From Moorena sp. SIO3A2 (GTDB lineage Bacteria > Cyanobacteriota > Cyanobacteriia > Cyanobacteriales > Coleofasciculaceae): a stretch of DNA of 54,642 nt. Both the position numbers and the translations under genes were made by a program. The DNA lies in assembly GCF_010672265.1 (NCBI RefSeq), contig NZ_JAAHHC010000004.1, positions 70,161 to 124,802 on the forward strand. The letters are read 5' to 3'. This document shows positions 3 through 40,573 of the stretch, one piece after another. Under the pieces are notes generated by a model. It was given only the letters and a program-made list of their open reading frames with translations, made no database searches and was not told the DNA's origin. Every line of letters starts with the position of its first letter. The stretch's first letter is position 1.

Positions 3-3000
3 ACTAGTGGCTGTGCTTATAATGAACTAAAACTCTGGAATATATTTATCCCCCAAAATGTGCAAGAGGTTCATGACTTGATGCCGGAGGCGATTCATGA
101 ACTGCCTAAGGATGATTATCGAAAACTGCAAGAGAGTGGTGAATTAGATCACGAAATTGACCAAAAGGAGTTGCAACGAGCTAAACAGGTTTATTATCAA
201 CAGCCAATTCAATCGATATTGGATGTGATCAAAGACTCTCAAGGCTATCGCTATTTGGTGGTTTTAGGAAACCCAGGCTCTGGTAAATCTACCTTGCTGC
301 AATATTTAGCATTGGAGTGGGCAAGAACTGATCTAACTACTGAAAGTTCTCTACGGATTCCGTTACTGATTGACTTACCCACTTATATCCGGAATCGCGA
401 TAGTGGACAGTGTCAGGATTTCTTGGAATTCTGCCATCAAAGTAGTGGAGCGATATGTGATATCAATCAAAATAAACTTGATGATCAGTTAAAGGCTGGT
501 AAGGTTTTAGTGATGTTTGATGGCTTGGATGAAGTGTTTGAGCCAGGGAAACGAGAAGATGTCATTACTGATATTCATCGCTTTACGAATCAGTATCCTA
601 AGGTAAGAGTAATTGTGACATCTCGGGTAATTGGTTATAAACCTCAACGGCTACGGGATGCTGAATTTCGTCATGTTATGCTCCAAGACTTGGAGTCGGA
701 AAAAATTCAAAAGTTTATCGAGCAGTGGCATGAGTTAACCTTTACTGATGAAGGGGATAAAGTTAGGAAACAGGAGCGCTTACAAAAAGCCATTAAGACA
801 TCCTCTCGGATTCGAGAACTGGCGCAAAATCCCCTATTACTAACCATGATGGCAATCCTGAACCACAATCAAGAATTGCCTCGTGACCGCTCTGAACTCT
901 ATAACCAATCTTCTCGGTTACTGCTCCATCAATGGGATGTGGAACTAGCATTACTAGAAGATAATCGTGTTGATCCGAAGACTATTGATTATCAAGATAA
1001 GCAACAGATATTGGGAAAAGTGGCAGATTTCATGCAGGGTAATCAAGGGGGATTAGCGGGAAATCTGATTAGTGGGGAAGATTTAGAAAGAATTATCAAA
1101 GAGGAGCTGAAATTACGGGAGGTTACTAATCCTAAAGCTGTTGCTAAGGTAATGATTAATCAGTTGTGTACCCGCAATTTTATCTTCTGTTCAATGGGAG
1201 CCAATTACTACGCTTTTGTGCATCGGACATTTTTGAACTATTTCTGTGCTCGGGAATTGGTCAGGAAATTTGAGAAAAAGCAGGATATTTCCCTAGCACA
1301 GTTGAAAAACGAGGTATTTGGTAAGCACTGGCGGGATGAATATTGGCATGAAGCGCTGCAGTTGATTGTGGGCATGATTGATTCTACCAAAGGTGGAGAG
1401 ATTATTGAGTATTTGATGGAACAAGGTGGAGTAGAGGATGATTTTAATAATTTATTTCTGGCAGGGGATTGTTTATCTGAGGTTAGGAATCGGTATGAGA
1501 TTAAATCAACGAATATTGGATTACTGAATCGCGTCAAAGACTTAATTCATTATGATCTAAATTCTACTGATAACAAGTATGGAGATGAGGCCAACTTAGT
1601 CCGTGATATTCGCACTAAAGCTGTTGTAGCAGTAGCCACCCATTGGCAAGACCACCGAGATACCTTAGCCCTACTTAAAAAATTGGCTCGCTCGGATGCT
1701 GATAGGTATGTGCGAGTTAGAGCAATTGAACAGTTAGTTCAAGGTTACAAAGACCACCGAGATACCTTAGCCCTACTTAAAAAATTGGCTCGCTCTGATA
1801 CGGATTTGTGGGTGCGAGCTACAGCAATTGAACAGTTAGCTAAAGGTTACAAAGACCACCGAGATACCTTAGCCATACTTCAAGAATTGGCTCGCTCTGA
1901 TACGGATTTGTGGGTGCGATGTAGAGCAATTGAACAGTTAGCTAAAGGTTACAAAGACCACCGAGATACCTTAGCCATACTTAAACAATCGGCTCGCTCT
2001 GATACTGATTCGGAGGTGCGAATTACAGCAATTGAACAGTTAGCTCAAGGTTACAAAGACCACCAATATACCTTAGCACTACTTGAACAATCGGCTCGCT
2101 GTGATACTGATTCGGAGGTGCGAGTTAGAGCAATTGAACAGTTAGTTCAAGCTTACAAAGACCACCTAGATACCTTAGACATACTTCAAGAATTGGCTCG
2201 CTATAATACTGATTCGTGGGTGCGAGGTACAGCAATTGAACAGTTAGCTAAAGGTTACAAAGACCACCGAGATACCTTAGCCATACTTAAACAATCGGCT
2301 CGCTGTGATCAAGATTGGCAGGTGCGAGTTAGAGCAATTGAACAGTTAGCTCAAGGTTACAAAGACCACCGAGATACCTTAGCCCTACTTCAAGAATTGG
2401 CTCGCTGTGATACTGATTCGGATGTTCGATGTAAAGCAATTGAACAGTTAGCTAAAAGTTACAAAGACCAGCGAGATACCATAGCCATACTTCAAGAATT
2501 GGCTCGCTCTGATACTGATTCGTGGGTAAGAATTACAGCAATTGAACAGTTAGCTAAAGGTTACAAAGACCACCGAGATACCATAGCCCTACTTCAACAA
2601 TGGGCTCGCTCTGATACTGATTCGTGGGTACGAGTTACAGCAATTGAACAGTTAGCTAAAGGTTACAAAGACCACCGAGATACCATAGCCCTACTTCAAC
2701 AATGGGCTCGCTATAATACTGATTCGAGTGTGCGAGTTAGAGCAATTGAACAGTTAGCTAAAGGTTACAAAGACCACCGAGATACCATAGCCCTACTTCA
2801 ACAATGGGCTCGCTCTGATACTGATTGGCAGGTGCGATGTACAGCAATTGAACAGTTAGCTAAACGTTACCAAGACGACCGAGATACCTTGGCCCTACTT
2901 CAAGAATCGGCTCGCTCTGATACTGATTCGGATGTGCGAGTTACAGCAATTAAACAGTTAGCTAAACGTTACCAAGACCACCGAGATACCTTAGCCCTAC

Positions 3001-3341
3001 TTCAAGAATCGGCTCGCTCTGATACTGATTCGGATGTGCGAGGTAGAGCAATTGAACTGTTAGCTCAAGGTTGGCACGATCGCGTAGCGTGGCCTACGGC
3101 CAATCAGCCTTGGTTATTTGAATTTTTATGCGATCGCATTCTCCATGACCCCTATGATCCTAATAAGGATAAGAAAAACGTGATTGTCTATGGACTAGAA
3201 AACAATCCTCGACAAGCAGCCCTTAATGCCATCCTCAAATATTATCCTAACCATTCCCAAACCCGATCCTTATTACAGGATAGAGCAGAGCATGACTCCG
3301 ATCCTGAACTGCGGAAGTTTGCTAAGGAGAATTTAGCATGA
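3..3341 (+). CDS. NACHT-domain STAND NTPase with C-terminal array of 14 x 31-aa HEAT/PBS-lyase-type repeats; 5' end cut by window edge (reading frame is open from base 3)
   Basis: Walker A GNPGSGKST, Walker B VLVMFDGLDEV, NACHT-like order of motifs; repeats HRDTLALLQELARSDTDSWVRxxAIEQLAKGYKD; N-terminal residues TSGCAYNELKLW.. match internal region of the paralog at 4320-4400, so the true start is upstream of the window. Confidence 0.8.
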   Translation, partial: TSGCAYNELKLWNIFIPQNVQEVHDLMPEAIHELPKDDYRKLQESGELDHEIDQKELQRAKQVYYQQPIQSILDVIKDSQGYRYLVVLGNPGSGKSTLLQYLALEWARTDLTTESSLRIPLLIDLPTYIRNRDSGQCQDFLEFCHQSSGAICDINQNKLDDQLKAGKVLVMFDGLDEVFEPGKREDVITDIHRFTNQYPKVRVIVTSRVIGYKPQRLRDAEFRHVMLQDLESEKIQKFIEQWHELTFTDEGDKVRKQERLQKAIKTSSRIRELAQNPLLLTMMAILNHNQELPRDRSELYNQSSRLLLHQWDVELALLEDNRVDPKTIDYQDKQQILGKVADFMQGNQGGLAGNLISGEDLERIIKEELKLREVTNPKAVAKVMINQLCTRNFIFCSMGANYYAFVHRTFLNYFCARELVRKFEKKQDISLAQLKNEVFGKHWRDEYWHEALQLIVGMIDSTKGGEIIEYLMEQGGVEDDFNNLFLAGDCLSEVRNRYEIKSTNIGLLNRVKDLIHYDLNSTDNKYGDEANLVRDIRTKAVVAVATHWQDHRDTLALLKKLARSDADRYVRVRAIEQLVQGYKDHRDTLALLKKLARSDTDLWVRATAIEQLAKGYKDHRDTLAILQELARSDTDLWVRCRAIEQLAKGYKDHRDTLAILKQSARSDTDSEVRITAIEQLAQGYKDHQYTLALLEQSARCDTDSEVRVRAIEQLVQAYKDHLDTLDILQELARYNTDSWVRGTAIEQLAKGYKDHRDTLAILKQSARCDQDWQVRVRAIEQLAQGYKDHRDTLALLQELARCDTDSDVRCKAIEQLAKSYKDQRDTIAILQELARSDTDSWVRITAIEQLAKGYKDHRDTIALLQQWARSDTDSWVRVTAIEQLAKGYKDHRDTIALLQQWARYNTDSSVRVRAIEQLAKGYKDHRDTIALLQQWARSDTDWQVRCTAIEQLAKRYQDDRDTLALLQESARSDTDSDVRVTAIKQLAKRYQDHRDTLALLQESARSDTDSDVRGRAIELLAQGWHDRVAWPTANQPWLFEFLCDRILHDPYDPNKDKKNVIVYGLENNPRQAALNAILKYYPNHSQTRSLLQDRAEHDSDPELRKFAKENLA

Positions 3342-3494
3342 AGAATTTAGAATTTAGAATTTAGAATTTAGAATTTAGAATTTAGAATTTAGAATTTAGA
3401 ATGTAGAATGTAGAATTTAGAATTTAGAATGAAGAATGAAGAATGAAGAATGAAGAATGAAGAATTTAGAATTTAGAATTTAGAATTTAGAATT
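3342..3494. repeat. heptanucleotide tandem repeat (GAATTTA / GAATGAA variants), STRR-like
   Basis: about 20 tandem 7-mers directly after stop codon of first NACHT gene. Confidence 0.9.
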
Positions 3495-3497
3495 AAG

Positions 3498-3682
3498 GCG
3501 TAGGGTGTGTTAGGGACGGGCTCGCCAAGACGCAAGCCATAGCAAGTGTTAGGTTGTTGCCCGTAACGCACCACCGCGTCAAATAGCATGCATTGAGATG
3601 CACCAGGCTCGCCCTCATGTTATCCTTAGCCAGTGTTGAGAAAGTCCGTCCCGTAACGCACTATCAGGTCAAACTGATTGCC
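3498..3682. repeat. two tandem copies of a ~100-bp dispersed repeat family (…TAGGGACGGG…CCGTCCCGTAACGCACCAC…GCAT..GAGATGCACC)
   Basis: same family recurs at 28690-28960; units contain inverted GGGACGG / CCGTCCC arms. Confidence 0.7.
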
Positions 3683-3727
3683 TTTCGTATATAATGATAA
3701 ATAAACCGAAAAACAACTACCAACATC

Positions 3728-6700
3728 ATGCTGGATTGGTTAGCAATTTGGGGACTTTATACTGCTGGTGACTATCTTGCCAAGGAAGTAATTGGTCCTT
3801 TGGCGAAAGAAGCTCTAGAAGACTATACTAAAGAGTTTTTCAAAGAGTCTATTAAAGATTATACTGGACTATCGGATCAAAATATCCAGAAAAAACTCTT
3901 GGGTAAAGCCTTAAAAGAATTTGTGGCTTTAGTGCAAGAAGAATTGGAAGATGCGGATTTATCTAAGCAAGACGTAAAACAGTATACTAAACCCCTCAAG
4001 CAGTATATTAAACATAAATCTATTAAAGCTATCCTGGGCAGTGCTTTCAAGTATGGCTGTAAACGAATCGATACCGATACCTTAGCCCACACTTGGATTG
4101 AGCTTGACTTATTACCATTACCGGAAGGATTTGATTGGCACTATATTGGTAAACAGTATGTCAAGGAAGTAAAAACGATTATTCGGGAATCCGATGATTT
4201 ACGGCCTATTCGGGATTCCCAAACCTTGGAAGCGATCGCAGAAAACACTAAACCAGGAATTATCCCAGATTTTGACTTAAGGGAATATCAGGAAGCACTC
4301 CTAGAGAGCTACGGTAATGTCAAATTGGATAGTTTAGATACTAGTGGCTGTGCTTATAACGAACTAAAACTATGGAAAATATTTATCCCTCAAAATGTCC
4401 GAGAAGTTCATGACTTGATGCCGGAGGCGATTCATGAACTTCCTAAGGATGATTCTCAAAAACTGCGCGAGAGTGGTCAACTACAAAGGGAAATTGACAA
4501 AGATGAGTTGAAACGAGCTAAAGAGCGTTATTATCAACAACCGATAAAATCCGTATTGGATGTAATTGAGGACTCTCAAAGCTATCGGTATTTGGTGGTT
4601 TTAGGAGACCCAGGCTCTGGTAAATCTACGTTGCTGCAATATTTAGCATTGGAGTGGGCAAAAACCGATCTAACTACTGACAGTTCTCTATCAATTCCCT
4701 TACTGATTGAATTACGCACCTATATCCGGAATTGCGATAGTGGACAGTGTAATAACTTCTTGGAATTCTGCCATCAAAGCAGTGGAGCGATATGTCATCT
4801 GAATCAACATCACCTTGATCAGGAGTTAAAAGATGGTAAGGTGTTAGTTATGTTTGATGGCTTGGATGAAGTGTTTGATCCAGAGAAACGAATAGATGTA
4901 ATTACGGAGATTCATCGCTTTACCAATCGCTATCCTAAAGTAAGAGTAATTGTAACATCTCGGGTAATTGGTTATAAACCCCAACGGCTACGGGATGCTG
5001 AATTCCGTCATGTTATGCTCCAAGACTTGGAGTCAGAACAAATTCAAAACTTTATTGAGAAGTGGCATAAATTAAACTTTACTGATCAAGCCGATAAAGT
5101 TAGGAAACAGGAGCGCTTACAAAAAGCCATTGAGACATCCTATCGGATTCGAGAACTGGCGCAAAATCCCCTATTACTAACCATGATGGCAATCCTGAAT
5201 CGCAATCAAGACTTGCCTCGTGACCGCTCTGAACTCTATAACCAATCCTCTCGATTACTGCTCCATCAATGGGATGTGGAACGAGCATTACAAGAAGATC
5301 ATCGTGTTGACCCGAAGATTATTGATGATGAATATAAGCAACATATACTAAGAAAAGTGGCATATTTTATGCAGGGTAATCAAGCCGGATTAGCGGGAAA
5401 TCTGATTAGTGGAGAGGATTTAGAACGGATTATCAAAGATGATCTGAAACTACAGGATTTTACTAATCCCAGAGACGTTGCTAAGGTAATGATTAATCAG
5501 TTGCGCACCCGCAATTTTATCTTGTGTTTCATGGGAGCCGATTATTACGCTTTTGTGCATCGGACATTTTTGGAATATTTCTGTGCTTGGAAATTTGTCA
5601 TGAAATTTGAGAAAACCCAGGAGATTGACCTAGAACAGTTAAAAACCGAAGTATTTGGTAAGCACTGGCGAGATGAATCGTGGCATGAAGTGCTGAGGTT
5701 GATTGTGGGCATGATTTATTCTAAGAAAGGTGGAGAGATTATTGAGTATTTGATGGCACAAGATGGAGAAGGGTATAAGTTTGGTAATTTATTTCTGGCA
5801 GCAGATTGTTTGTCTGAGGTTAGGAATCGGTATGAGATTAAATTAACGGATACTGGATTACTAAATCGTATCAAAGACTTAATTTACTATGATCTAAATT
5901 ATTATTATGACCAGTATGGAGATGAGACAAGGTTAGTCCGTGATATTCGCACTAACGCTGTGGTAGCAGTAGCCACCCATTGGCAACACCATACAGATAC
6001 CTTACCCCTACTTCAACAATCGGCTCGCTCTGATAAAGATTCGTGGGTGCGACGTACAGCAATAGAACAGTTAGCTCAAGGTTACAAAGACCATCGAGAT
6101 ACCTTACCCCTAATTCAAGAATCGGCTCGCTCTGATACTAATTCGTTGGTGCGAGTTACAGCAATAGAACAGTTAGCTCAAGGTTACCAAGACCATCGAG
6201 ATACCTTACCCCTACTTCAAGAATGGGCTCGCTCTGATAATGATTCGTGGGTGCGAGGTGAAGCAATAGAACAGTTAGCTAAAGGTTACCAAGACCACCC
6301 AGATACCTTACCCCTACTTCAACAATCCGCTCGCTCTGATAAAGATTCGTGGGTGCGACGTACAGCAATAGAACAGTTAGCTCAAGGTTACCAAGACCAT
6401 CGAGATACCTTACCCCTACTTCAAGAATGGGCTCGCTCTGATAAAGATTCGTGGGTGCGACGTAAAGCAATAGAACAGTTAGCTCAAGGTTACAAAGACC
6501 ATCGAGATACCTTAGCCATACTTCAAGAATCCGCTCGCTCTGATAATGATTGGAAGGTGCGAGGTGAAGCAATAGAACAGTTAGCTCAAGGTTACAAAGA
6601 CCACCCAGATACCTTAGCCATACTTCAAGAATCCGCTCGCTCTGATAAAGATTCGTGGGTGCGACGTACAGCAATAGAACAGTTAGCTCAAGGTTACAAA

Positions 6701-8887
6701 GACCATCGAGATACCTTACCCCTACTTCAAGAATACGCTCGCTCTGATAGTGATTCGGATGTGCGAGGTGAAGCAATAGAACAGTTAGCTAAAGGTTACC
6801 AAGACCACCCAGATACCTTACCCCTACTTCAACAATCGGCTCGCTCTGATAAAGATTCGTGGGTGCGACGTAAAGCAATAGAACAGTTAGCTCAAGGTTA
6901 CAAAGACCATCGAGATACCTTAGCCATACTTCAAGAATCCGCTCGCTCTGATACTGATTCGGATGTGCTGCGAGGTAAAGCAATTGAACTGTTAGCTCAA
7001 GGTTACAAAGACGACCCAGATACCTTACCTCTACTTCAACAATCCGCTCGCTCTGATAAAGATTCGGATGTGCGAGTTACAGCAATTAAACAGTTAGCTG
7101 AAGGTTACAAAGACCACCAAGATACCTTACCCCTACTTCAACAATCGGCTCGCTCTGATAAAGATTCGTGGGTGCGACGTAAAGCAATAGAACAGTTAGC
7201 TAAAGGTTACAAAGACCATCGAGATACCTTAGCCATACTTCAAGAATCCGCTCGCTCTGATACTGATTCGGATGTGCTGCGAGGTAAAGCAATTGAACTG
7301 TTAGCTCAAGGTTACAAAGACGACCCAGATACCTTACCTCTACTTCAACAATCCGCTCGCTCTGATAAAGATTCGGATGTGCGAGTTACAGCAATTAAAC
7401 AGTTAGCTAAAGGTTACCAAGACCACCCAGATACCTTAGCCATACTTCAAGAATCCGCTCGCTCTGATACTGATTCGGATGTGCGAGGTGAAGCAATAGA
7501 ACAGTTAGCTAAAGGTTACCAAGACCACCCAGATACCTTAGCCATACTTCAAGAATCCGCTCGCTCTGATAGTGATTCGGATGTGCGAGGTACAGCAATT
7601 AAACAGTTAGCTAAAGGTTACAAAGACCACCAAGATACCTTACCCCTACTTCAAGAATCCGCTCGCTCTGATAAAGATTCGGATGTGCGAGTTACAGCAA
7701 TAGAACAGTTAGCTGAAGGTTACCAAGACCACCAAGATACCTTACCTCTACTTCAACAATCGGCTCGCTCTGATACTGATTCGGATGTGCGAGGTAAAGC
7801 AATTCAACAGTTAGCTCAAGGTTACCAAGACCACCCAGATACCTTACCTCTACTTCAAGAATACGCTCGCTCTGATAAAGATTCGGATGTGCGAGTTACA
7901 GCAATTAAACAGTTAGCTGAAGGTTACAAAGACCACCAAGATACCTTACCCCTACTTCAAGAATCCGCTCGCTCTGATAAAGATTCGGATGTGCGAGTTA
8001 CAGCAATAGAACAGTTAGCTGAAGGTTACCAAGACCACCCAGATACTTTACCCATACTTCAAGAATCCGCTCGCTCTGATAGTGATTCGGATGTGCGAGG
8101 TACAGCAATTAAACAGTTAGCTCAAGGTTACAAAGACCACCAAGATACCTTAGCCATACTTCAAGAATCCGCTCGCTCTGATACTGATTCGGATGTGCGA
8201 GGTAAAGCAATTCAACAGTTAGCTCAAGGTTACCAAGACCACCCAGATACCTTACCTCTACTTCAAGAATACGCTCGCTCTGATAAAGATTCGGATGTGC
8301 GAGTTACAGCAATAGAACAGTTAGCTGAAGGTTACAAAGACCACCAAGATACCTTACCCCTACTTCAAGAATACGCTCGCTCTGATAGTGATTCGGATGT
8401 GCGAGGTGAAGCAATAGAACAGTTAGCTCAAGGTTACCAAGACCACCCAGATACCTTAGCCATACTTCAAGAATCCGCTCGCTCTGATACTGATTCGGAT
8501 GTGCGAGGTAAAGCAATAGAACAGTTAGCTAAAGGTTACCAAGACCACCCAGATACCTTAGCCATACTTCAAGAATCCGCTCGCTCTGATACTGATTCGG
8601 ATGTGCGAGGTAAAGCAATTCAACAGTTAGCTCAAGCTTGGCACGACCAGCTTTGGTTATCGCAATTTTTATGCGATCGCACTCTCCATGACCCCTTTGA
8701 CCCTGATAAAGACAGAGATTACGAGAGAGATGACGAGAATTACAATCCTCGACAAATAGCCCTTCAGGCCATTCTCGAATATTATCCTAACCATTCCCAA
8801 ATCCGGTCTTTATTGCGGGATAGAGCAAAGCATGACCCTGATCCTAAACTGCGGGAGTTTGCTAAGGAGCAATTAGCAAAATTATAG
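3728..8887 (+). CDS. NACHT-domain STAND NTPase, 1719 aa; ~220-aa N-terminal extension + NACHT + 26 HEAT/PBS-lyase-type repeats; tandem paralog of upstream gene
   Basis: GDPGSGKST Walker A, VLVMFDGLDEV Walker B, about 90% DNA identity with gene 1 across NACHT region; 26 x 31-aa repeats (two are 32 aa). Confidence 0.85.
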   Translation: MLDWLAIWGLYTAGDYLAKEVIGPLAKEALEDYTKEFFKESIKDYTGLSDQNIQKKLLGKALKEFVALVQEELEDADLSKQDVKQYTKPLKQYIKHKSIKAILGSAFKYGCKRIDTDTLAHTWIELDLLPLPEGFDWHYIGKQYVKEVKTIIRESDDLRPIRDSQTLEAIAENTKPGIIPDFDLREYQEALLESYGNVKLDSLDTSGCAYNELKLWKIFIPQNVREVHDLMPEAIHELPKDDSQKLRESGQLQREIDKDELKRAKERYYQQPIKSVLDVIEDSQSYRYLVVLGDPGSGKSTLLQYLALEWAKTDLTTDSSLSIPLLIELRTYIRNCDSGQCNNFLEFCHQSSGAICHLNQHHLDQELKDGKVLVMFDGLDEVFDPEKRIDVITEIHRFTNRYPKVRVIVTSRVIGYKPQRLRDAEFRHVMLQDLESEQIQNFIEKWHKLNFTDQADKVRKQERLQKAIETSYRIRELAQNPLLLTMMAILNRNQDLPRDRSELYNQSSRLLLHQWDVERALQEDHRVDPKIIDDEYKQHILRKVAYFMQGNQAGLAGNLISGEDLERIIKDDLKLQDFTNPRDVAKVMINQLRTRNFILCFMGADYYAFVHRTFLEYFCAWKFVMKFEKTQEIDLEQLKTEVFGKHWRDESWHEVLRLIVGMIYSKKGGEIIEYLMAQDGEGYKFGNLFLAADCLSEVRNRYEIKLTDTGLLNRIKDLIYYDLNYYYDQYGDETRLVRDIRTNAVVAVATHWQHHTDTLPLLQQSARSDKDSWVRRTAIEQLAQGYKDHRDTLPLIQESARSDTNSLVRVTAIEQLAQGYQDHRDTLPLLQEWARSDNDSWVRGEAIEQLAKGYQDHPDTLPLLQQSARSDKDSWVRRTAIEQLAQGYQDHRDTLPLLQEWARSDKDSWVRRKAIEQLAQGYKDHRDTLAILQESARSDNDWKVRGEAIEQLAQGYKDHPDTLAILQESARSDKDSWVRRTAIEQLAQGYKDHRDTLPLLQEYARSDSDSDVRGEAIEQLAKGYQDHPDTLPLLQQSARSDKDSWVRRKAIEQLAQGYKDHRDTLAILQESARSDTDSDVLRGKAIELLAQGYKDDPDTLPLLQQSARSDKDSDVRVTAIKQLAEGYKDHQDTLPLLQQSARSDKDSWVRRKAIEQLAKGYKDHRDTLAILQESARSDTDSDVLRGKAIELLAQGYKDDPDTLPLLQQSARSDKDSDVRVTAIKQLAKGYQDHPDTLAILQESARSDTDSDVRGEAIEQLAKGYQDHPDTLAILQESARSDSDSDVRGTAIKQLAKGYKDHQDTLPLLQESARSDKDSDVRVTAIEQLAEGYQDHQDTLPLLQQSARSDTDSDVRGKAIQQLAQGYQDHPDTLPLLQEYARSDKDSDVRVTAIKQLAEGYKDHQDTLPLLQESARSDKDSDVRVTAIEQLAEGYQDHPDTLPILQESARSDSDSDVRGTAIKQLAQGYKDHQDTLAILQESARSDTDSDVRGKAIQQLAQGYQDHPDTLPLLQEYARSDKDSDVRVTAIEQLAEGYKDHQDTLPLLQEYARSDSDSDVRGEAIEQLAQGYQDHPDTLAILQESARSDTDSDVRGKAIEQLAKGYQDHPDTLAILQESARSDTDSDVRGKAIQQLAQAWHDQLWLSQFLCDRTLHDPFDPDKDRDYERDDENYNPRQIALQAILEYYPNHSQIRSLLRDRAKHDPDPKLREFAKEQLAKL

Positions 8888-8966
8888 ATAGTAAAGGGAG
8901 TCGGGAGTAAGGATATAGGGAATAGGGGGAGATGGAGGATATTTATATTAAGGTAATTGTCATAAC

Positions 8967-9761
8967 ATGACATTACCCTTCTATTGTCCTGAGTGTTTTT
9001 GCAAAAGCGAGATGCACCCTACCTTAGCCCTACTTCAACAATCGGCTCGCTCTGATACTGATTTGTCGGTGCGAGCTACAGCAATGGAACAGTTAGCTCA
9101 AGCTTGGCAAGACCATCGAGATGCCTTACGCCTACTTCAACAATCGGCTCGCTCTGATACTGATTCGAGGGTGCGACTTAAAGTACTGGAACAGTTAACT
9201 CTAGGTTGGCAAAACCATCGCGATAGCATAACCCTACTTCAAGAATGGGCTCGCTGTGATACTGATTCAGATCTGCGAGATCAAGTAATTGAACAGTTAA
9301 TTCAAGGTTGGCAAGACCATCGCGATACCTTAGCCCTACTTGAAGAATGGGCTCGCTCTGATCCTGATTCGAGGCTGCGAGCTACAGCAATTAAACAGTT
9401 AGCTCAAGGTGGGAAAGACCACCCATATATTTTACCCCTACTTGAAGAATGGGCTCGCTGTTATAAATATTCATTTGAACAGTTACCTGAAGCTGGACAA
9501 GACCAGCCTTGGTTATGGGAATTTTTATGCGATCGCGTAGCGGCTCTTTCAGAGCATCGCACTGTCAATGACCCCTTTGAGCATAAGGGACAAAGGACAT
9601 ACAATCCTCGAAAAATAGCTCTTGAGGCCATCCTCAAATATTATCCTAACCATTCCCAAACCCGGTCTTTATTGCAAGATAGAGCAGAGCATGACCCCGA
9701 TCCTAAACTGCGGAAGTTTGCTAAGGAGCAATTAGAAAAATTAAGGGCGTTGCTGAATTAA
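8967..9761 (+). CDS. HEAT-repeat protein, 264 aa, paralogous to C-terminal module of the NACHT-HEAT genes (possible remnant of a third paralog lacking the NTPase part)
   Basis: 5 diverged 31-aa repeats (…LLQQSARSDTD..VR.TA.EQLAQ.WQDHRD…) and conserved tail PWLWEFLCDR…YNPR.IALEAILKYYPNHSQTRSLLQDRAEHDPDPKLRKFAKEQL. Confidence 0.5.
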   Translation: MTLPFYCPECFCKSEMHPTLALLQQSARSDTDLSVRATAMEQLAQAWQDHRDALRLLQQSARSDTDSRVRLKVLEQLTLGWQNHRDSITLLQEWARCDTDSDLRDQVIEQLIQGWQDHRDTLALLEEWARSDPDSRLRATAIKQLAQGGKDHPYILPLLEEWARCYKYSFEQLPEAGQDQPWLWEFLCDRVAALSEHRTVNDPFEHKGQRTYNPRKIALEAILKYYPNHSQTRSLLQDRAEHDPDPKLRKFAKEQLEKLRALLN

Positions 9762-9940: not shown

Positions 9941-10357
9941 CTACATGCTTAATTCTCCCTTCGAGAACAATCGTTCTAATACCTCTTTTGGAATTGTCTC
10001 AAAATTTTCCAACAAGAAATCCATGATGGCCAGATGGCGCAAGTGACCAGCAGTGGGAGGGTAACAGCGACGACTGGTGTTAAACCAGCCGTTAACGGTT
10101 TGAACGGAACAGGAGCAGATCAAAGCGATATCTTCGCGAGTCAGGTCCCACTTCTGGTAGAACCGTTGCGGTGTCATGCCCAATTCGCAGTAACTGTACA
10201 GTCGGATTAGGATTTGCTCGCGCTCGGTGATGGGGTAGGGATAGGCATGTTCCCCCTTCGACTCCCTCTGTTGGGCAGGCTGTTGGGCAAGCTGCTCAAG
10301 GCGCTCCATCGCTTCGTGGTAATCGATGGGAAGATAAACAAATCGTTTTTTTGGCAT
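9941..10357 (-). CDS. hypothetical protein, 138 aa, possible HTH (…TREDIALICSCSVQTVNGWF…)
   Basis: ORF only; no recognisable family. Confidence 0.35.
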   Translation of the reverse strand: MPKKRFVYLPIDYHEAMERLEQLAQQPAQQRESKGEHAYPYPITEREQILIRLYSYCELGMTPQRFYQKWDLTREDIALICSCSVQTVNGWFNTSRRCYPPTAGHLRHLAIMDFLLENFETIPKEVLERLFSKGELSM

Positions 10358-10390
10358 TATTATATAATTACCTCAATTGTAATTGAGTAG

Positions 10391-10436
10391 AAAGCCGCGC
10401 TTGGCGCTTGGTCGGCAGAAAGCGCGGCTTTTTTTT
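10391..10436 (+). terminator. GC-rich stem-loop followed by T8 (AAAGCCGCGCTT…AAGCGCGGCTTTTTTTT); intrinsic-terminator-like in + orientation
   Basis: 12-bp perfect stem, 16-nt loop, 8 T; lies 34 bp upstream of the start of the minus-strand gene, so it may instead be a 5'-UTR/insulator structure. Confidence 0.4.
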
Positions 10437-21543: not shown

Positions 21544-21880
21544 AGAATCCTAGGGTGGGCAGTGCCTACCAACCCCCTTGGCAAGCTTCATTATCTGTCT
21601 GATGCACTGCCCACCCTACATCAACTTAAACCTACTTTCCCCATTGGCTACTGCATCAAGAATCCTAGGGTGGGCAGTGCCTACCAACCCCCTTGGCAAG
21701 CTTCATTATCTGTCTGATGCACTGCCCACCCTACATCAACTTAAACCTACCTTCCCCATTGGCTACTGCATCAAGAATCCTAGGGTGGGCAGTGCCTACC
21801 AACCCCCTTGGCAAGCTTCATTATCTGTCTGATGCACTGCCCACCCTACATCAACTTAAACCTACTTTCTGACTCGCCCT
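21544..21880. repeat. about 2.7 tandem copies of a ~121-bp unit, each containing a 13-bp inverted repeat GGGTGGGCAGTGC…GCACTGCCCACCC
   Basis: visible; ORF-track ORFs 21535-21832 are artefacts of it. Confidence 0.9.
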
Positions 21881-28689: not shown

Positions 28690-28960
28690 TTTTGTAAATG
28701 TTCGTAGGGTGCCTTAGGGACGGGGTACCCCTTATGTTCTTGGTAGCCAGTGTTAGGAGAATCCGTCCCGGATGCTGTTGGTGAAATATTTCTTAACAAA
28801 CCAAGAAGCCCCCTCAGCCCTCACCCCCAGCCCCTCTCCCAACCTTGGGAGAGGGGAGCAGATTACGGCAGAATAAGGGTTTCACGAATTCGCCAGCAGC
28901 ATCCGTCCCGTAACGCACCACCTGCTCAAACGGCAAAAATGAGATGCACCCGTCTCTTGT
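28690..28960. repeat. copy of the 3498-3682 dispersed repeat family, interrupted by a MITE-like insertion
   Basis: GTAGGGTGCCTTAGGGACGGG…CCAGTGTTAGGAGAATCCGTCCCG[insert]ATCCGTCCCGTAACGCACCACCTGCTCAAA…GAGATGCACCC. Confidence 0.7.
28771..28900. mobile_element. 130-bp MITE-like insertion with ~11-bp terminal inverted repeats (GATGCTGTTGG / CCAGCAGCATC) and 9-10-bp target duplication (A)TCCGTCCCG; internal palindrome CCCTCTCCCAACCTTGGGAGAGGGG
   Basis: empty-site equivalent AAGTCCGTCCCGTAACGCAC present uninterrupted at 3643-3662. Confidence 0.6.
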
Positions 28961-32801: not shown

Positions 32802-35800
32802 ATGAAGAATATAATCAGGGATTCAGCAGAGCCTAGTAAACCACCGTCTTCTATCAACCCAGACCCTGCTAGCAATTTATCAGTGGTGCTTCAAAGCTTG
32901 ACCCTAGACTCAGTCGATCCAAAGCTCAACTACGAATTTAGTCAATCATTTGACCTTGATCACTTCCAGCTAGGGGATAAAATCCTTGCCTATACTAAAC
33001 CAGAGCTATCCCAAGATTCTGTTGAGATTGAACAAGATCACCAATATCTTTACCTAGTTTGTCAGGGTCGGGTACGACTACTAGGCTTTGATGCTGAAAA
33101 ACAGCGGGAGGTTTCCATACAGGTACTCGAAGAAGGGGAAACTTTTGGTGCCTATGATCTCTTAGGTAGTCTATCCTATCCTTACAGAGCGATCGCAGCG
33201 AGTTCAGGACAAGTTGCTCGTATTTCCCTAAATCAACTCTTGCCTTGGTTGGAACGGTTGCCAAAGTGGTCGGAAATCCTGGGGAAACAAGCCCAGCACC
33301 GGCAATGCCTAATTTTCTTCAAGACTTTGACCAATTTGCGATCGCTTAACGGTGTTACCATAAATCAACTGTTGCCCTACATCGTAGAAACACGCATTGA
33401 GGCTGGGGAGTCTCTGGTGTCCTCTTCCCAAGCTGGTCATTGCTGGCTACGTAGTGGTCAAATGGGAACGCCAGAAGGAACAGAGGCAAATTCCTCTGCT
33501 CCATTTCCTAGCATCGGAGAAAGTTGGGGATATCCGATGCCAGTACCCACAGATTGGATTGCCCAAACTGATGTATTGCTTTACCAGCTGCCTCAAGAGC
33601 ATTGGCAAGCGGCTTGCGCGATCGCACCAGTTTTGGCTAACTCCACCGAGTCACCGGATCAGGAGAACAGGCAAAGTGCTAAAAATGGTGACGGTAAATC
33701 TCCATCGGATCAAGGCGTAGTTAACAAGACCCATACTCCGTCACCACATGCAAACCAGACTAGAGCACGACCGACTCGGCGAGTTTTAGAAACTCCTAAG
33801 CAACAAACGCCCCTTGAACCCAGTCAGTCAGAAAGCTTTGATTTTCCCAAACCAGCAAAGCCGGGTGGGAGATTCCTAAGGTTTTGGCAGCGCTATCCTT
33901 TTATTGAGCAGCAAGCTTCTTCTGATTGTGGTGCTGCCTGCTTAGCCATGATTGGGCAGTATTGGGGCAAACGCTTTGCTCTCAACTCCCTGCGGGAACT
34001 GGCGGGAGTGGGTCGTTCTGGTTCATCCCTCAAAGGTTTAGCTAAAGCAGCGGAAAGTTTAGGGTTTCAAGCTAGTCCAGTCAGGGCTTCTTTAGGTCGC
34101 TTAGCGGATCGGAGTAATCCTTGGATTGCTCACTGGCAAGGAGATCACTATATTGTTGTCTACCAGGTAAAGGGTAATAAGGTACTCGTTGCCGATCCAG
34201 CAGTGGGGAAGCGATCGCTTGCTCGCAAAGACTTTCTCCAAAGTTGGACTGGGTATGCCATGCTATTGGATCCAACTCCCCAACTAGCAATTACTCCCAG
34301 CGACAAACGTTCTTTAGGGCCGTTTTGGGGATTGCTATGGCCCCATCGCTCAGTCCTGCTGCAAATTATCTTGGCTACCCTCATCCTTCAGGTTTTTGGT
34401 CTGATTACTCCCTTATTTACCCAGATCATTCTTGACCGGGTGATTATTAACAGAAGCCTTGTCACTCTCAATGTCTTCTCCATTGGTCTAATCATCTTTG
34501 GCCTTTGGACGATTGGGGTTAGTCTCACCAGACGCTACTTGCTGGACTACTTTTCCAATCGGCTTAGTCTCACCTTCGTCAGTGGCTTCATTAACCATAC
34601 CCTGACCTTACCCCTGAAGTTTTTTGAATCCCGCCAGGTGGGGGATATCCTGACCCGAATTCAGGAAACTGGAAAAATTCAGGGTTTTATAACTCAGCAA
34701 GCGATTGCGACTTGGCTAGATGTGGTGATGGTGTTTGTCTATATTGGACTAATGCTCTACTACAATTGGCGCTTAACCTTGCTGGTGCTGGCAACGATTT
34801 TCCCCATCGCCATCTTGACTGTGATTGCCAGTCCCTTTCTACGCCAGGTGTCCAGGGAAATCTTTAAAGAAGCAGCCCAACAAAATTCTATGTTAGTGGA
34901 AATGATGTCAGGGGTTGCTACTGTGAAAACGGCGGCTTCGGAACAAGAAGTGCGCTGGCGCTGGGAAGATCGCCTCACCAATCAGTTGAATGTACAATTT
35001 AAAGGTAGAAACCTGGCTAACGGGTTAGGGTCAATTAGTTCTCTAATTAATACTCTCAGCAGCACCGCTTTGCTTTGGTTTGGCGCTAGCTTAGTAATTA
35101 ATGAGCAGCTTACTATCGGTCAGTATGTCGCGTTTAATATGCTCATTGGCCGAGTCACTGGTCCGATTTTGGCTCTAGTGAATCTTTGGGATGAGTTTCA
35201 AGAAATCTTGGTGTCTGTAGAACGGCTTAATGATGTCTTATCTGCTAAGCCAGAGGAGAATCCTCAAGAACCAATGTTGGTTCTACCTGAGATTAAGGGT
35301 GATGTAATATTGGAAGATGTTACCTTCCGATACTCCGAGGATGAGGATCGCAATATCCTACAGAATATTTCCCTACAGATTAGGGCTGGAGAAACCATTG
35401 CTCTAGTGGGGCGCAGTGGCTCTGGCAAGAGTACCTTGGTGAAGCTACTGCAAGGTCTCTATCATCCGACTAATGGTCGTATTTTGATAGATGGACACGA
35501 TATCCGCCATATTTCCCCCCAATCTTTGCGTTCTCAAATGGGTGTGGTACCCCAAGAATGTTTCTTGTTCTCGGGGACAATTGTCGAAAATATCACTCTC
35601 TACCGACCGGATTTCAGCCTGGATGAAGCCGTAGAGGTAGCCAAACTAGCAGAAGCTCATGCTTTTATTCAAGGTATGACTTTGGGATATAATACAAAAG
35701 TAGGAGAGCGAGGCTCTACCCTTTCTGGTGGACAGCGACAAAGGATTGCCATAGCCCGAGCCCTATTGGGCAACCCCAAGATTCTGATTCTGGATGAAGC

Positions 35801-36029
35801 GACTAGCTCCCTAGATACAGAATCCGAGCGCCGCTTTCAACAAAACTTAGCTCGCATTAGTCGCGATCGCACTACCTTCATCATCGCCCACCGCCTCTCT
35901 ACAGTGCGCAATGCTGACTGCATCCTTGTCCTAGACCGAGGTGTTCTGGTCGAGAAAGGCAACCATCAGGAACTCATGGATCGTCAAGGTCTTTACTATC
36001 ATCTAGCACAGCAGCAGCTAGATCTTTAA
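32802..36029 (+). CDS. HetC-like ABC exporter: N-terminal cNMP-binding-like domain + peptidase C39 (double-glycine leader peptidase) + 6-TM domain + ABC ATPase, 1075 aa (cassette 1)
   Basis: C39 triad QASSDCGAAC…HYIVVY…D; Walker A GRSGSGKST, signature LSGGQRQRIAIARAL, Walker B ILILDEATS; N-terminal beta-roll-like …LYLVCQGRVRLLGF…GETFGAYDLL…. Confidence 0.9.
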   Translation: MKNIIRDSAEPSKPPSSINPDPASNLSVVLQSLTLDSVDPKLNYEFSQSFDLDHFQLGDKILAYTKPELSQDSVEIEQDHQYLYLVCQGRVRLLGFDAEKQREVSIQVLEEGETFGAYDLLGSLSYPYRAIAASSGQVARISLNQLLPWLERLPKWSEILGKQAQHRQCLIFFKTLTNLRSLNGVTINQLLPYIVETRIEAGESLVSSSQAGHCWLRSGQMGTPEGTEANSSAPFPSIGESWGYPMPVPTDWIAQTDVLLYQLPQEHWQAACAIAPVLANSTESPDQENRQSAKNGDGKSPSDQGVVNKTHTPSPHANQTRARPTRRVLETPKQQTPLEPSQSESFDFPKPAKPGGRFLRFWQRYPFIEQQASSDCGAACLAMIGQYWGKRFALNSLRELAGVGRSGSSLKGLAKAAESLGFQASPVRASLGRLADRSNPWIAHWQGDHYIVVYQVKGNKVLVADPAVGKRSLARKDFLQSWTGYAMLLDPTPQLAITPSDKRSLGPFWGLLWPHRSVLLQIILATLILQVFGLITPLFTQIILDRVIINRSLVTLNVFSIGLIIFGLWTIGVSLTRRYLLDYFSNRLSLTFVSGFINHTLTLPLKFFESRQVGDILTRIQETGKIQGFITQQAIATWLDVVMVFVYIGLMLYYNWRLTLLVLATIFPIAILTVIASPFLRQVSREIFKEAAQQNSMLVEMMSGVATVKTAASEQEVRWRWEDRLTNQLNVQFKGRNLANGLGSISSLINTLSSTALLWFGASLVINEQLTIGQYVAFNMLIGRVTGPILALVNLWDEFQEILVSVERLNDVLSAKPEENPQEPMLVLPEIKGDVILEDVTFRYSEDEDRNILQNISLQIRAGETIALVGRSGSGKSTLVKLLQGLYHPTNGRILIDGHDIRHISPQSLRSQMGVVPQECFLFSGTIVENITLYRPDFSLDEAVEVAKLAEAHAFIQGMTLGYNTKVGERGSTLSGGQRQRIAIARALLGNPKILILDEATSSLDTESERRFQQNLARISRDRTTFIIAHRLSTVRNADCILVLDRGVLVEKGNHQELMDRQGLYYHLAQQQLDL

Positions 36030-36330
36030 TAGATCGTTAACAAGTGCTCATTAGTCATTAGTTATTAGTTATTAGTTATTTAGTCATTAGTCATTTGTAA
36101 ATCCCCATAGACCCTGGTTAGTCACAAAGGACTAATGACTAAGAAAATTTGAAGCTACCTATGACTATATCAAACTATGTAAAAATTTGCCAATTTGGCA
36201 ACACAGTCATGTGAAAAGGACTAATGACTAATGACTAATAATTAATGAAATTTGAAGCTAGCTATCACTATGTCAAGCTTTGTAAAAAGCTGCCAAAAAT
36301 CTGCCAATTTAGCAACATACTCAGATGAAA
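36030..36330. repeat. heptamer repeats (TAGTTAT) followed by two ~95-bp direct repeats each carrying GCCAATTTGGCAACA / GCCAATTTAGCAACA motif
   Basis: visible; the homologous ABC-HlyD spacer in cassette 2 is only 170 bp. Confidence 0.75.
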
Positions 36331-36833
36331 TTGATCTTTTATCAGAAAAGTGGAAAAGCCCTGTGTGAATATAAGGGGATGAAAACGTGTTCAGATATGG
36401 CTCCACACCCATTTCGTAACCACCGTTTAGAATCCCCTGAGAATTCTCCATGACGCACACTCACCGGAGAGTTTAATTCCAATTCCTTTGTTTAATTCAT
36501 TCCCATGCACCCCACTAAAGGTGAGACGCAGGTAACTTGGAGAGCCTAACCCTAGGGTCAGTCCTGCTCAAGTCCACACCTCACAGCGTGCTCAGGCAAT
36601 AGGTTTGACCGACCGACGGCTACTTAAAGGGGAAGGGTTTAAGTTCTGATCTCGGGGTGCATTGAAGCTATCTGAAAAAGGGGCAAGTAGAGTCAGGTAA
36701 TGCCAAAGATTTCGGCCTGCCCAACAATACCAAACTCACCCCGGGAAGCTAAGGGCAGCACGAGAATTGGTCGCTTTCTTTCCCAAAACATTGGTCATTT
36801 CCCTAAAATGTTAATTTAGCGTGATCTACCACC

Positions 36834-38435
36834 ATGACACAAGCAAAACCAATCAACTCCCCACCTGAGGCGGCTACGAGTCGTCAGGGTAACGTCGTTT
36901 TAATGCCATCAGGTCGCCTGAGACCTGATTATGACCAAGAGCCAGGCTCACCCAGCACAGAGGTAGGAAGCAATACTGCCAATGCTCCTAGTACGTCCAA
37001 ATGGTCAACCTCGATACAAACTACCCTCGACCAGCCTCCGGCGAACCTTCCCCGGCTCTTGATGTTGGGTGGATTAAGCTTCTGTACGATATTTGTGGCT
37101 TGGGCAACGTTTGGGCAGATTGATGAAGTCGGTAAAGCTCATGGAAGCTTAGTGCCAAAAGGCGACGTTTATAAAGTTGACCCGATTGAGCCAGGCAAGA
37201 TTGCTAGTATTAAGGTCAAAGAAGGGCAAGCGGTTAAAGCTGGGGAAGTCTTGGTGGAACTGGATACAGAGCTTGCCACTCAGGAAGTAGAACGTTTAGA
37301 GAAAGTTCTTAATGCAGACCGGATTAGGTTAGTTCAGATGCAAGGACTGCTTGAAAGAACCCGTCTAGAAGTAGAAACTCGTGAGCAGATTACCCAAGCA
37401 GAAGTTCAAGCACAACAAGCTTCGATCGCACGAGCACAAGCTAGTGCATCGGCAATTAGACAACAAATCATTCAACATCAGTTAGCTAAAGCTGCTAATC
37501 GCGAACGATTACAACGGATGAAGCTGGTGCAGGCGACAGCCCAAGAACTGCTCCAGCAACGGCGGGCTAATGTAGTGGCTCTCAAGGAACGACTCGATAA
37601 CCTTAAGCCTCTGTTGGCAGAAGGAGCAATCTCGAAAGAACAGGTATTTCAAGCAGAACAAAGCTTTCGTGCTAGCCAAAGTGCTGTTACCGAAAGCAAA
37701 CTGCAAGAGGGTTTGAGTACTCGCGAACAGATCTTTCAAGCTCAGCAAAGTATACGCGATCGCGAAGCGGCGACTAGCCAAAGCCGAGGTGAGCTACAAC
37801 AAACTTTAGCAGAAATTAAGCGACTAGAGGCAGAATTAGAGCATCGGCAAGCAACGGGACGCACCACTCGCCTGGAAGCACAGCAGAAAATTCAACAGTT
37901 GGAAGTGGAACTGACCCAAATCAAAGCTAGAATTTCTGAAAATGAAACCCTGGTTACTACTGCTAAAACCAGGCTCAAACAGAAGTTTCTCAAAGCGCCA
38001 GTGGATGGGATAATATCTTCCCTCAACATTGGTAATGCTGGTGAAGTCGTGCAACCGGGACGTAGCATCGCCGAAATCGCTCCTCAAGGTGCCCCCTTAG
38101 TGCTATCCGCAAGTTTGCCTACTCGCGAGGCAGGGTTTATTAACGAAGGAATGGCGGTGCAAGTGAAATTTGATGCCTATCCCTATCAGGATTACGGCAT
38201 CATCAAAGGCACGGTGATTTCCATCTCTTCCGATGCTAAAGCCGATCAAGTAATGGGTTCAGTCTATAAGGTGAAAGTGTCCCTCGACCGTGACTATGTG
38301 ATTGAAGAGGATGAAATCATCCGGTTTAAGGCTGGTCAAACCGCCAATGCTGACATCATCATCCGCCGCCGTCGGATTATCGATTTCTTATTGGATCCGA
38401 TGCGACAACTGCAAAAAAGCGGCATCGATCTATAG
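36834..38435 (+). CDS. HlyD-family membrane-fusion (periplasmic adaptor) protein, 533 aa (cassette 1)
   Basis: N-terminal TM, biotinyl/lipoyl-like hairpin, long coiled coil, C-terminal beta-domain …IIIRRRRIIDFLLDP…. Confidence 0.85.
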   Translation: MTQAKPINSPPEAATSRQGNVVLMPSGRLRPDYDQEPGSPSTEVGSNTANAPSTSKWSTSIQTTLDQPPANLPRLLMLGGLSFCTIFVAWATFGQIDEVGKAHGSLVPKGDVYKVDPIEPGKIASIKVKEGQAVKAGEVLVELDTELATQEVERLEKVLNADRIRLVQMQGLLERTRLEVETREQITQAEVQAQQASIARAQASASAIRQQIIQHQLAKAANRERLQRMKLVQATAQELLQQRRANVVALKERLDNLKPLLAEGAISKEQVFQAEQSFRASQSAVTESKLQEGLSTREQIFQAQQSIRDREAATSQSRGELQQTLAEIKRLEAELEHRQATGRTTRLEAQQKIQQLEVELTQIKARISENETLVTTAKTRLKQKFLKAPVDGIISSLNIGNAGEVVQPGRSIAEIAPQGAPLVLSASLPTREAGFINEGMAVQVKFDAYPYQDYGIIKGTVISISSDAKADQVMGSVYKVKVSLDRDYVIEEDEIIRFKAGQTANADIIIRRRRIIDFLLDPMRQLQKSGIDL

Positions 38436-40071: not shown

Positions 40072-40162
40072 ATGCCTAGGGGAATATGGATATAGTTATA
40101 TCAACAGCTAAAACAAAGCTGCTCCACAGAAATAAAATCAACAACAAAGAAGGAGAAAATCA

Positions 40163-40495: not shown

Positions 40496-40573
40496 TAATT
40501 AATCACGAAAAGTTTCTGATTAATTAGTTTCTAAACCTCGATTCATCATCAACAACCAACAAGGAGAAAATCA

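Follow-up and report, generated by a model that had tools for sequence, protein, structure and literature searches.

Strain-variable tandem NLR-like proteins of the NNH2-NACHT-HEAT family in the cyanobacterium Moorena sp. SIO3A2

Introduction

What is encoded by the three repeat-rich open reading frames (ORFs) that follow one another on the plus strand at positions 3-9761 of the DNA analyzed here, and what might their long repeat arrays be used for? The DNA, which is called the window below, is a 54,642-nucleotide (nt) stretch of the genome of Moorena sp. SIO3A2, a marine filamentous cyanobacterium. The ORFs are named genes 1, 2 and 3 in their order along the window. The initial annotation of this locus described tandem paralogs of signal transduction ATPases with numerous domains (STAND NTPases), in which a NACHT domain is followed by HEAT repeats, and the profile and structure searches reported below bear this description out. 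Taken together with a comparison of several Moorena genomes, these results suggest that the locus is probably a strain-variable set of tandem STAND NTPases which resemble the nucleotide-binding leucine-rich repeat (NLR) receptors, belong to the cyanobacterial NNH2-NACHT-HEAT family and would act as switches sensing phage or other non-self.

Gene 1 (3-3341), a NACHT-HEAT protein identified from its ORF, its translation and its Pfam matches, is cut by the 5' end of the window. Its reading frame enters the window as TSGCAYNELKLW... (frame 3, from base 3) at the equivalent of residue 205 of gene 2, and consists of a NACHT module (3-1655), 14 units of 34 amino acids (aa) each (1656-3083) and a C-terminal tail (3084-3341). 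Gene 2 (3728-8887) is complete and encodes an NNH2-NACHT-HEAT protein of 1719 aa. Its NNH2 domain, presumably an effector or adaptor, occupies positions 3800-4342 and the core of its NACHT P-loop NTPase positions 4586-5071; the helical and winged-helix parts of the NACHT module extend to about nt 5990. The HEAT-like array of gene 2, delimited by Tandem Repeats Finder (TRF), by motif and hidden Markov model (HMM) counts and by HEAT_2 matches, spans 5993-8650. Gene 3 (8967-9761; NER86511.1) is a HEAT-only ORF of 264 aa.

Structure of the NTPase and NNH2 modules

The Pfam NACHT profile (PF05729, cut-off 26.7 bits) matches gene 2 with 63.2 bits and gene 1 with 53.2 bits. The elements that are invariant in 64 homologs, namely the Walker A motif (GxPGSGKS), the sequence DGLDE, the sensor arginine, NPLLL and the histidine of the winged helix, are intact in both genes. 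Walker A reads GNPGSGKS in gene 1 and GDPGSGKS (aa 293-300) in gene 2, and Walker B is VLVMFDGLDE in both, with DGLDE at aa 377-381 of gene 2. The winged-helix motif is FVHRTFLNYF in gene 1 and FVHRTFLEYF, containing the invariant H611, in gene 2. In the numbering of gene 2, the invariant columns of the 64 homologs are G293, D294, P295, G296, G298, K299, S300, D377-E381, R412 and H611.

The NACHT modules of genes 1 and 2 (3-1658 and 4340-5995) can be aligned over 1656 nt with no gap. Their identity is 88.0% at the nt level, slightly below the approximately 90% first estimated for the DNA, and 80.3% at the aa level. The ratio of nonsynonymous to synonymous substitution rates (dN/dS) of these modules is 0.45 between genes 1 and 2 and 0.25-0.65 among their orthologs, and the modules are stop-free. 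As judged from these ratios, the NACHT modules are under purifying selection.

The AlphaFold2 model of residues 1-1000 of gene 2 has a mean predicted local distance difference test (pLDDT) score of 78, rising above 90 in the repeats. Its best Foldseek matches in the PDB are NOD2, NLRP7, NLRP14, NLRP3 and NAIP/NLRC4 (E-values 1e-8 to 5e-6). Differences in the multi-domain arrangement keep the global TM-scores against NLR structures low (about 0.2). The model, together with the sequence motifs, indicates that the NTPases of genes 1 and 2 are STAND proteins of the NACHT clade, with the nucleotide-binding, helical and winged-helix fold of animal NLRs predicted for gene 2.

The NNH2 domain was examined in gene 2 only, the 5' end of gene 1 lying outside the window. 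Residues 25-205 match the complete NNH2 profile (PF22734, positions 1-181 of 181) with 202 bits against a cut-off of 27 (E-value 7.6e-60). Hydrophobicity and conservation are highest in the first 25 residues (from nt 3728), which precede the Pfam match and include W4, W8 and G15. It is a matter of speculation that these residues might form a membrane-inserting helix of the kind found in HeLo domains and ZAR1.

A search with the non-repeat part of gene 2 yields over 3,700 matching proteins at an E-value of 1e-10 or below. Filamentous cyanobacteria are the source of nearly all of them, the NNH2-NACHT-HEAT_2 architecture of gene 2 is shared by nearly all, and there are many such paralogs per genome. 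The best relative of gene 2 is 87% identical and comes from Moorena. Other Moorena paralogs have a break of the reading frame at the equivalent of gene-2 residues 170-177, exactly at the boundary between NNH2 and NACHT, and two have a break near residue 376. These paralogs, which may be split two-gene versions or pseudogenes, are found at positions 14150-16443, 1789-4085, 10001-12297, 10001-12320 and 10001-12294 of the compared loci L004, L005, L008, L009 and L010, respectively.

Repeat units and their duplication

Three arrays with a period of 102 nt were detected by TRF, at 1648-3072 (14.0 copies, 89% matches), 5994-8636 (25.9 copies) and 9020-9459 (4.3 copies, 82% matches). Motif and HMM counts give 14 units for gene 1, 26 for gene 2 and 4 for gene 3, so that the 14 and 26 units counted originally are retained; the unit is, however, 34 aa (102 nt) long and not 31 aa. 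The scores of the Pfam HEAT_2 profile are 228.8, 482 and 59.8 bits for genes 1, 2 and 3. In the model, helix A takes up positions 3-13 of the unit and helix B, after a turn, positions 17-30, all predicted with pLDDT above 90. A phmmer search matches the repeats to alphaRep chains with an E-value of 1.4e-10.

Of the 26 units of gene 2, 24 have 34 aa and two have 35 aa. The two long ones, units 10 and 13, represent the rare variant SDVLRGKAIELL, which had been noticed before as a 32-aa form and in fact reaches 35 aa through one extra leucine codon. Each copy of this variant lies in one half of a tandem duplication, in which units 9-11 (6812-7120) and units 12-14 (7121-7429) are identical at 305 of 309 nt. 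At the mean identity of the array (about 89%) some 34 mismatches would be expected over this length, and 4 are observed. The exact core of the duplication is 206 nt long (6894-7099 = 7203-7408). The recent three-unit duplication proposed in the initial annotation is thus present in the assembled sequence, with a length of 309 nt rather than about 280. It is accompanied by further near-identical pairs of gene-2 units: 17 and 20 (100%), 15 and 25 (99%), 8 and 24 (98%). The existence of several such pairs implies that the array of gene 2 passed through several recent duplication or conversion events.

The mean identity between units is 89% in nt and 0.74 in aa for gene 2, and 87% and 0.71 for gene 1. 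Genes 1 and 2 are typical in this respect of 104 close homologs, in which the between-unit aa identity has a median of 0.70 and reaches 0.96. The unit count of gene 2 stands out, since the next highest among close homologs is 14. The number and order of these 26 units should not be taken as proven, because the genome is a short-read metaSPAdes assembly and the array contains exact repeats of 206, 143, 120 and 116 nt. SIO3A2 is named in a study with genomes obtained from Illumina HiSeq 4000 reads and metaSPAdes (PMC7825088).

Variable positions of the repeat unit

The differences between units are concentrated in few codons. Unit positions 1, 5, 6, 9, 10, 15, 18, 21, 22, 25, 29 and 32 (12 of the 34 codons) are variable; they account for 86% of the between-unit nt differences in gene 2, and for 60% of those in gene 1. 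Most scaffold codons have no variation between units, either synonymous or nonsynonymous. In gene 2, the ratio of nonsynonymous to synonymous polymorphism (pN/pS) amounts to 2.35 at the 12 variable codons and 0.19 at the others; the corresponding values for gene 1 are 4.12 and 1.45. These figures are descriptive, as it is duplication and conversion, and not a tree, that connect the units, and the same data served to pick the variable codons. Variation of a few codons, most of it nonsynonymous, fits a diversifying sensor.

Helix A carries the variable positions 5, 6, 9 and 10, and helix B the positions 18, 21, 22, 25 and 29. The spacing in helix B (i, i+3/4, i+7, i+11) places the variable sites on one face of the helix. 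Unit positions 21, 22, 25 and 29 align with positions 18, 19, 22 and 26 of alphaRep, which belong to the randomized binding surface of that engineered scaffold (PMC3754942). In the family-wide consensus, these unit positions read 'x'. The surface location of the variable sites is derived from this helix periodicity and homology, and not from model coordinates.

A diversity-generating retroelement was considered as a source of the variation and rejected, as whole units are reshuffled and no adenine-directed mutagenesis is apparent. No reverse transcriptase was found among the ORFs of the window that were scanned against Pfam, a scan outside which several ORFs of at least 120 aa remained.

Variation of the locus between strains

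Orthologous groups were defined by the identity of the NACHT modules among Moorena genomes, and all unit counts of other strains are taken from assemblies, mostly short-read ones. The orthologs of gene 1 in SIO1G6, M. bouillonii PNG5-198, SIO3H5 and SS36440bin_2 are 95-97% identical to it in nt sequence and have dN/dS values of 0.34-0.65. They contain 14, 13, 13 and 14 units, compared to 14 in the window. The orthologs of gene 2 are at best 93% identical (SIO1G6), have dN/dS values of 0.25-0.52 and contain 6, 5, 6 and 16 units, compared to 26 in the window. The NACHT modules of both groups are stop-free, from which it follows that both genes are maintained. The rapid expansion and contraction of the repeats, which the initial annotation ascribed to the locus as a whole, is a property of the gene-2 group only, whereas the gene-1 orthologs are nearly invariant. 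Unit numbers differ between strains, and the proteins fall outside the housekeeping NTPase families, the two points by which the earlier description was to be judged.

The number of NLR genes also changes. A block downstream of the locus, encoding a CLC channel, TldD and Tab2, is about 95% identical in other Moorena genomes, and the NLR array upstream of it varies, individual strains having between one and three full NLR genes. In SIO1G6, gene 3 is followed by a third full gene, and in PNG5-198 two full genes flank a truncated copy.

In all four gene-1 orthologs, the first approximately 135 codons of NNH2 are damaged. Near the equivalent of gene-2 codon 64 there is a TAA codon, which three of these orthologs have in frame. 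Common to all four are a TAG at about codon 123 and a 7-nt insertion that creates an in-frame ATG (MYYIGK...). Further lesions of the NNH2 region are strain-specific, and the NACHT-HEAT frame downstream is open. The damaged regions are located at 1239-1900 in L012 (SIO1G6), 4115-4820 in L002 (PNG5-198), 990-1700 in L003 and 9954-10680 in L004. Gene 1 of the window, whose 5' end lies beyond the window, probably likewise lacks an intact NNH2 start. The gene-1 group retains a NACHT-HEAT frame of 1150-1200 codons, is under purifying selection and is always directly upstream of an NNH2-bearing paralog. In view of these sequence properties, it resembles an NLR with no effector that is maintained by selection. 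Genes 1 and 2 might even form a sensor/helper pair similar to RGA5/RGA4 of plants or NAIP/NLRC4 of animals, in which the effector-less gene 1 would detect the ligand and co-oligomerize with the effector-bearing gene 2, but we think such a pairing very unlikely.

Gene 3 contains 4 diverged units, which are about 80% identical to each other in nt sequence, followed by the C-terminal tail of the family, and has no NTPase. The presence of HEAT units and the lack of an NTPase are as first described. A separate functional module, however, is not the best interpretation. Gene 3 shares 85.7% identity with the last units and tail at the 3' end of the SIO3H5 ortholog of gene 2, and at most 78.6% with any other paralog. 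It is a separate ORF in SIO1G6, SIO4G3 and SIO4E2, with different start codons and with indels, and is 93-95% identical in nt sequence in SIO1G6 and SIO4G3, with dN/dS of 0.66-0.86. These properties suggest that gene 3 most likely once formed the 3' end of a gene of the gene-2 type, was then stranded and evolves almost neutrally. A new last unit, tail and stop codon would have been placed upstream, leaving the old 3' end behind as gene 3. The possibility that gene 3 is an independent functional sensor was considered unlikely because of its dN/dS, its differing starts and indels, and its homology to the 3' end of the SIO3H5 gene. Different stages in the birth and decay of genes are brought together in this locus: an expanding gene, a stable paralog whose group has no intact effector domain, and what is most likely a stranded 3' end.

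Possible function

The following mechanism may be proposed for the proteins of this locus. The C-terminal solenoid of 34-aa HEAT-like units would serve as the ligand sensor, with its specificity set by a stripe of hypervariable residues contributed by each unit. The likeliest ligand would be a phage protein or another non-self protein. Binding of the ligand would release the NACHT domain for nucleotide exchange and oligomerization, and oligomerization would gather the N-terminal NNH2 helical domains, which would then deliver the output. This output could be toxic, directed at the membrane, or consist of the recruitment of another factor. The arrays would evolve by unequal recombination and gene conversion, which keep the scaffold codons nearly identical and at the same time reshuffle and multiply variant units. 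Gene 1 would represent an older, stable group with 13-14 units, which lost most of its NNH2 in other strains. The domain identities, the NTPase motifs, the NLR-like fold, the anatomy of the repeats, the pattern of variation and the strain differences, on which this mechanism builds, are direct results of the analysis; sensing by the repeats, oligomerization, an effector role of NNH2 and an immune function are what we infer from them.

Several results weigh against such a role. PADLOC gave no model match, and its weak hits (E-value 3e-4 or worse) are at the level of the P-loop only. The only NCBIfam hit, to the antiphage protein EruA, has 47.5 bits, compared to a cut-off of 1000. The locus is not part of a defense island or of a mobile element, and its flanks are housekeeping genes that are the same in other strains. 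The fold of NNH2 has no recognizable toxic or enzymatic counterpart. The descriptive character of the pN/pS figures and the indirect placement of the variable sites have to be added to these points, together with the nature of the assembly discussed below. A defense role, which was offered from the beginning as an inference, keeps that status, since there is neither a PADLOC model nor a defense island.

The length of the gene-2 array and its near-identical three-unit block might, wholly or partly, be artifacts of a short-read metagenome assembly. The SIO3A2 genome belongs to the Illumina HiSeq 4000/metaSPAdes set (PMC7825088), and the longer of the two largest exact repeats in the array (206 and 143 nt) probably exceeds a single read. 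The 26 units are about twice the maximum of 14 found among the 120 closest homologs, and the exact gene-2 protein is not present in a collection of 15 billion proteins, although neighbors from the same contig are. However, the junction of unit 11 to unit 12 is unique, and the two 309-nt copies differ at 4 positions. One loop of an assembly graph traversed twice would yield identical copies, so that the four differences speak against a simple artifact. The frame of gene 2 is open across all 26 units, and arrays of the gene-1 type with 13-14 units were recovered consistently in five independent assemblies. Short-read assemblers are likelier to collapse such arrays than to inflate them, in which case it is the orthologs with 5-6 units that would be doubtful. 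An artifact appears unlikely. It is less likely still that the proteins are regulatory or scaffolding NTPases outside any conflict, which might, for instance, monitor a host complex, and that the repeat variation results from neutral slippage or recombination in a tolerant solenoid. Such proteins would be at home among housekeeping genes, and the failure to obtain defense-model hits in PADLOC and NCBIfam, an NNH2 domain with no recognizable toxic or enzymatic fold, the stability of the gene-1 orthologs at 13-14 units and the membership of the repeats in the HEAT_2/PBS-lyase-like class are all in their favor. Neutral slippage, though, leaves unexplained why 86% of the differences fall into 12 codons, and why nonsynonymous changes are in excess there and nearly absent elsewhere. 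Many paralogs per genome and copy numbers that vary between close strains are typical of conflict genes, and a NACHT dN/dS of 0.25-0.65 is high for a core regulator.

The proteins could also be NLR-like switches for the recognition of conspecific non-self (allorecognition), or for a regulated cell death in the filament, as are the NACHT-WD proteins HET-E/D/R of fungi. We rate this as yet a little less probable than a role outside conflict. The signature of homogenized repeats, a few hypervariable positions and strain-specific repeat numbers is the one seen in fungal incompatibility NLRs (PMC4986451). The NNH2-NACHT-HEAT family and NLR-rich genomes are concentrated in filamentous, multicellular cyanobacteria, and the locus is chromosomal, beside housekeeping genes and outside defense islands. 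To our knowledge, however, no allorecognition system has been described in cyanobacteria. Nothing in the sequence separates allorecognition from the sensing of phage. What favors the sensing of phage is that the bacterial NACHT proteins tested so far, as reported in the portions of the study by Kibby et al. used here (bioRxiv 10.1101/2022.07.19.500537), act against phage. A switch that senses phage or other non-self is the interpretation adopted for the locus.

Other features of the window

The neighbors of the locus encode a CLC channel, TldD/PmbA, Tab2, an aminotransferase and a methyltransferase, all of the housekeeping type. Minus-strand ORFs within the arrays (1238-1537 and 6279-6776) were dismissed as by-products of the repeats. 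The spacer between genes 1 and 2 is partly filled by about 24 tandem copies of the heptanucleotide AGAATTT (3328-3494, detected by TRF), which begin within the last codons and the stop of gene 1. This repeat is polymorphic, with 8.6 and 3.6 copies in SIO1G6 (L012) and about 9 in M. bouillonii PNG5-198 (L002). Heptanucleotide tandem repeats resembling short tandemly repeated repetitive (STRR) sequences occur in many spacers, also at 13974-14079, 19255-19612 and 52447-53065. The remainder of the spacer upstream of gene 2 (3495-3727) contains short repeated elements (...CCCGTAACGCAC...), with one further occurrence in the window at 28902-28956. These elements recur upstream of several NLR paralogs at other loci and may be small dispersed repeats.

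An ORF of 138 aa (9941-10357, minus strand) is convergent to the last NLR gene. It has no Pfam match, and its homolog in M. producens PAL is annotated as helix-turn-helix. At the syntenic locus (L001, L002 and L013), and also at a paralogous one (L006, L008 and L009), homologs of it come after NLR genes. This ORF was considered as an obligate partner of the NLRs and rejected as a defining component, because it is absent from L003, L012 and L007, a Coleofasciculaceae homolog being included among these. The segment that follows (10527-14088) comprises an ORF of 178 aa with no Pfam hits, an S-adenosylmethionine (SAM) methyltransferase and a class-III aminotransferase. Neither L001 nor L002 has an equivalent of it between the small ORF and the CLC channel, and it looks like a strain-variable three-gene insertion.

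Farther downstream, the regions 32802-38435 and 46332-51349 are paralogous pairs, each encoding a cyclic nucleotide (cNMP)-binding/C39-peptidase/ABC exporter and an HlyD-type protein. Between them lies a tandem duplication of 411 nt (40137-40957, 94% identity), the consensus of which appears to start a small ORF (MLISDLNHLESVEASQVQGG...). One may guess that this ORF encodes a peptide with a double-glycine leader and that the region is a peptide export locus. Non-coding tandem repeats with long periods are found at 21544-21869 (115 nt, 2.8 copies at 99%) and 53247-53792 (125 nt, 4.6 copies at 86%).

Relation to known systems

The Moorena locus belongs to an already catalogued family. Kibby et al. 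(bioRxiv 10.1101/2022.07.19.500537) defined the NNH domains, listed cyanobacterial NNH2+NACHT+HEAT proteins in their clades 2 and 3, counted up to 23 NACHT paralogs per cyanobacterial genome, cyanobacteria being the group with the most paralogs, and showed that other bacterial NACHT proteins protect against phage. Examples in their Table S1 are NET46618.1 of Okeania sp. SIO2B3 (clade 3) and TBR56486.1 of Westiellopsis prolifica (clade 2). These entries share with gene 2 the three-part architecture, the origin in filamentous cyanobacteria and the large number of paralogs. They are, however, lines of a catalog, and in the portions of that study used here neither a tested protein with this architecture nor a role of NNH2 is mentioned. 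What the window adds to these entries is an array of 26 units that includes a recent three-unit duplication, the hypervariable positions of the unit, and a tandem arrangement of genes with what is probably a stranded 3' end.

Antiphage STAND NTPases such as Avs, whose sensors bind conserved phage proteins directly (PMC13581612), are likewise composed of an N-terminal effector, a STAND NTPase and a C-terminal sensor of alpha-helical repeats. The effectors of Avs are recognizable (nucleases, proteases and others) and their genes lie near defense genes, whereas the N-terminus of gene 2 has no recognizable activity and the Moorena locus is in a housekeeping context with no PADLOC model match.

The repeats themselves resemble alphaRep, which is derived from a thermostable family of HEAT-like repeats of the PBS-lyase type. 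In both, the unit is a helix-turn-helix and carries the signature D-x-D-x-x-V-R-x-x-A-x-x-x-L. The alphaRep unit has 31 aa, and the Moorena unit reaches 34 aa through a longer loop between units. Position 23 is variable in alphaRep, whereas its Moorena counterpart, position 26, is almost always glutamine. The Moorena repeats are, unlike alphaRep, attached to a NACHT switch.

The mode of repeat evolution is also known, both in fungi and in bacteria. Internally conserved repeats, polymorphism of repeat number and positive selection on the binding face were described for fungal NLRs (PMC4986451), and the same repeat features were noted in bacterial NLRs with WD and TPR repeats (bioRxiv 10.1101/2020.01.06.895854). 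The fungal proteins (HNWD proteins HET-E/D/R of Podospora and the NLRs with ANK, TPR and HEAT repeats; Dyrka et al. 2014) have in common with the Moorena genes a NACHT domain and repeats that are homogenized within a gene, vary in number from strain to strain and diversify at a small number of binding-face positions. They differ in that the Moorena repeats are HEAT-like and not WD, ANK or TPR, that the organism is a bacterium, and that the N-terminal domain is NNH2 instead of HET or HeLo. An incompatibility phenotype is known for the fungal genes and none is known for those of Moorena. The fungal class of highly internally conserved repeats is defined by units with at least about 85% aa identity over at least 100 aa (Dyrka et al. 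2014), compared to a mean of 71-74% aa (87-89% nt) for the Moorena units. Sub-blocks, namely units 9-14 of gene 2 and pairs of units at 98-100% nt identity, exceed this threshold, and other members of the family reach 0.91-0.96 aa.

Bacterial NLR-like proteins are now regarded as relatives of the immune receptors of animals and fungi, and little is known about the large families of multicellular cyanobacteria and the diversification of their sensors. The practical value of the locus is that of a starting point for experiments; existing beliefs about these systems are unchanged by it. At the level of the gene, it is a clean bacterial example of repeat dynamics of the fungal type, a homogenized scaffold with a variable stripe, here in a HEAT-like form for which the engineering of alphaRep has defined the binding surface.

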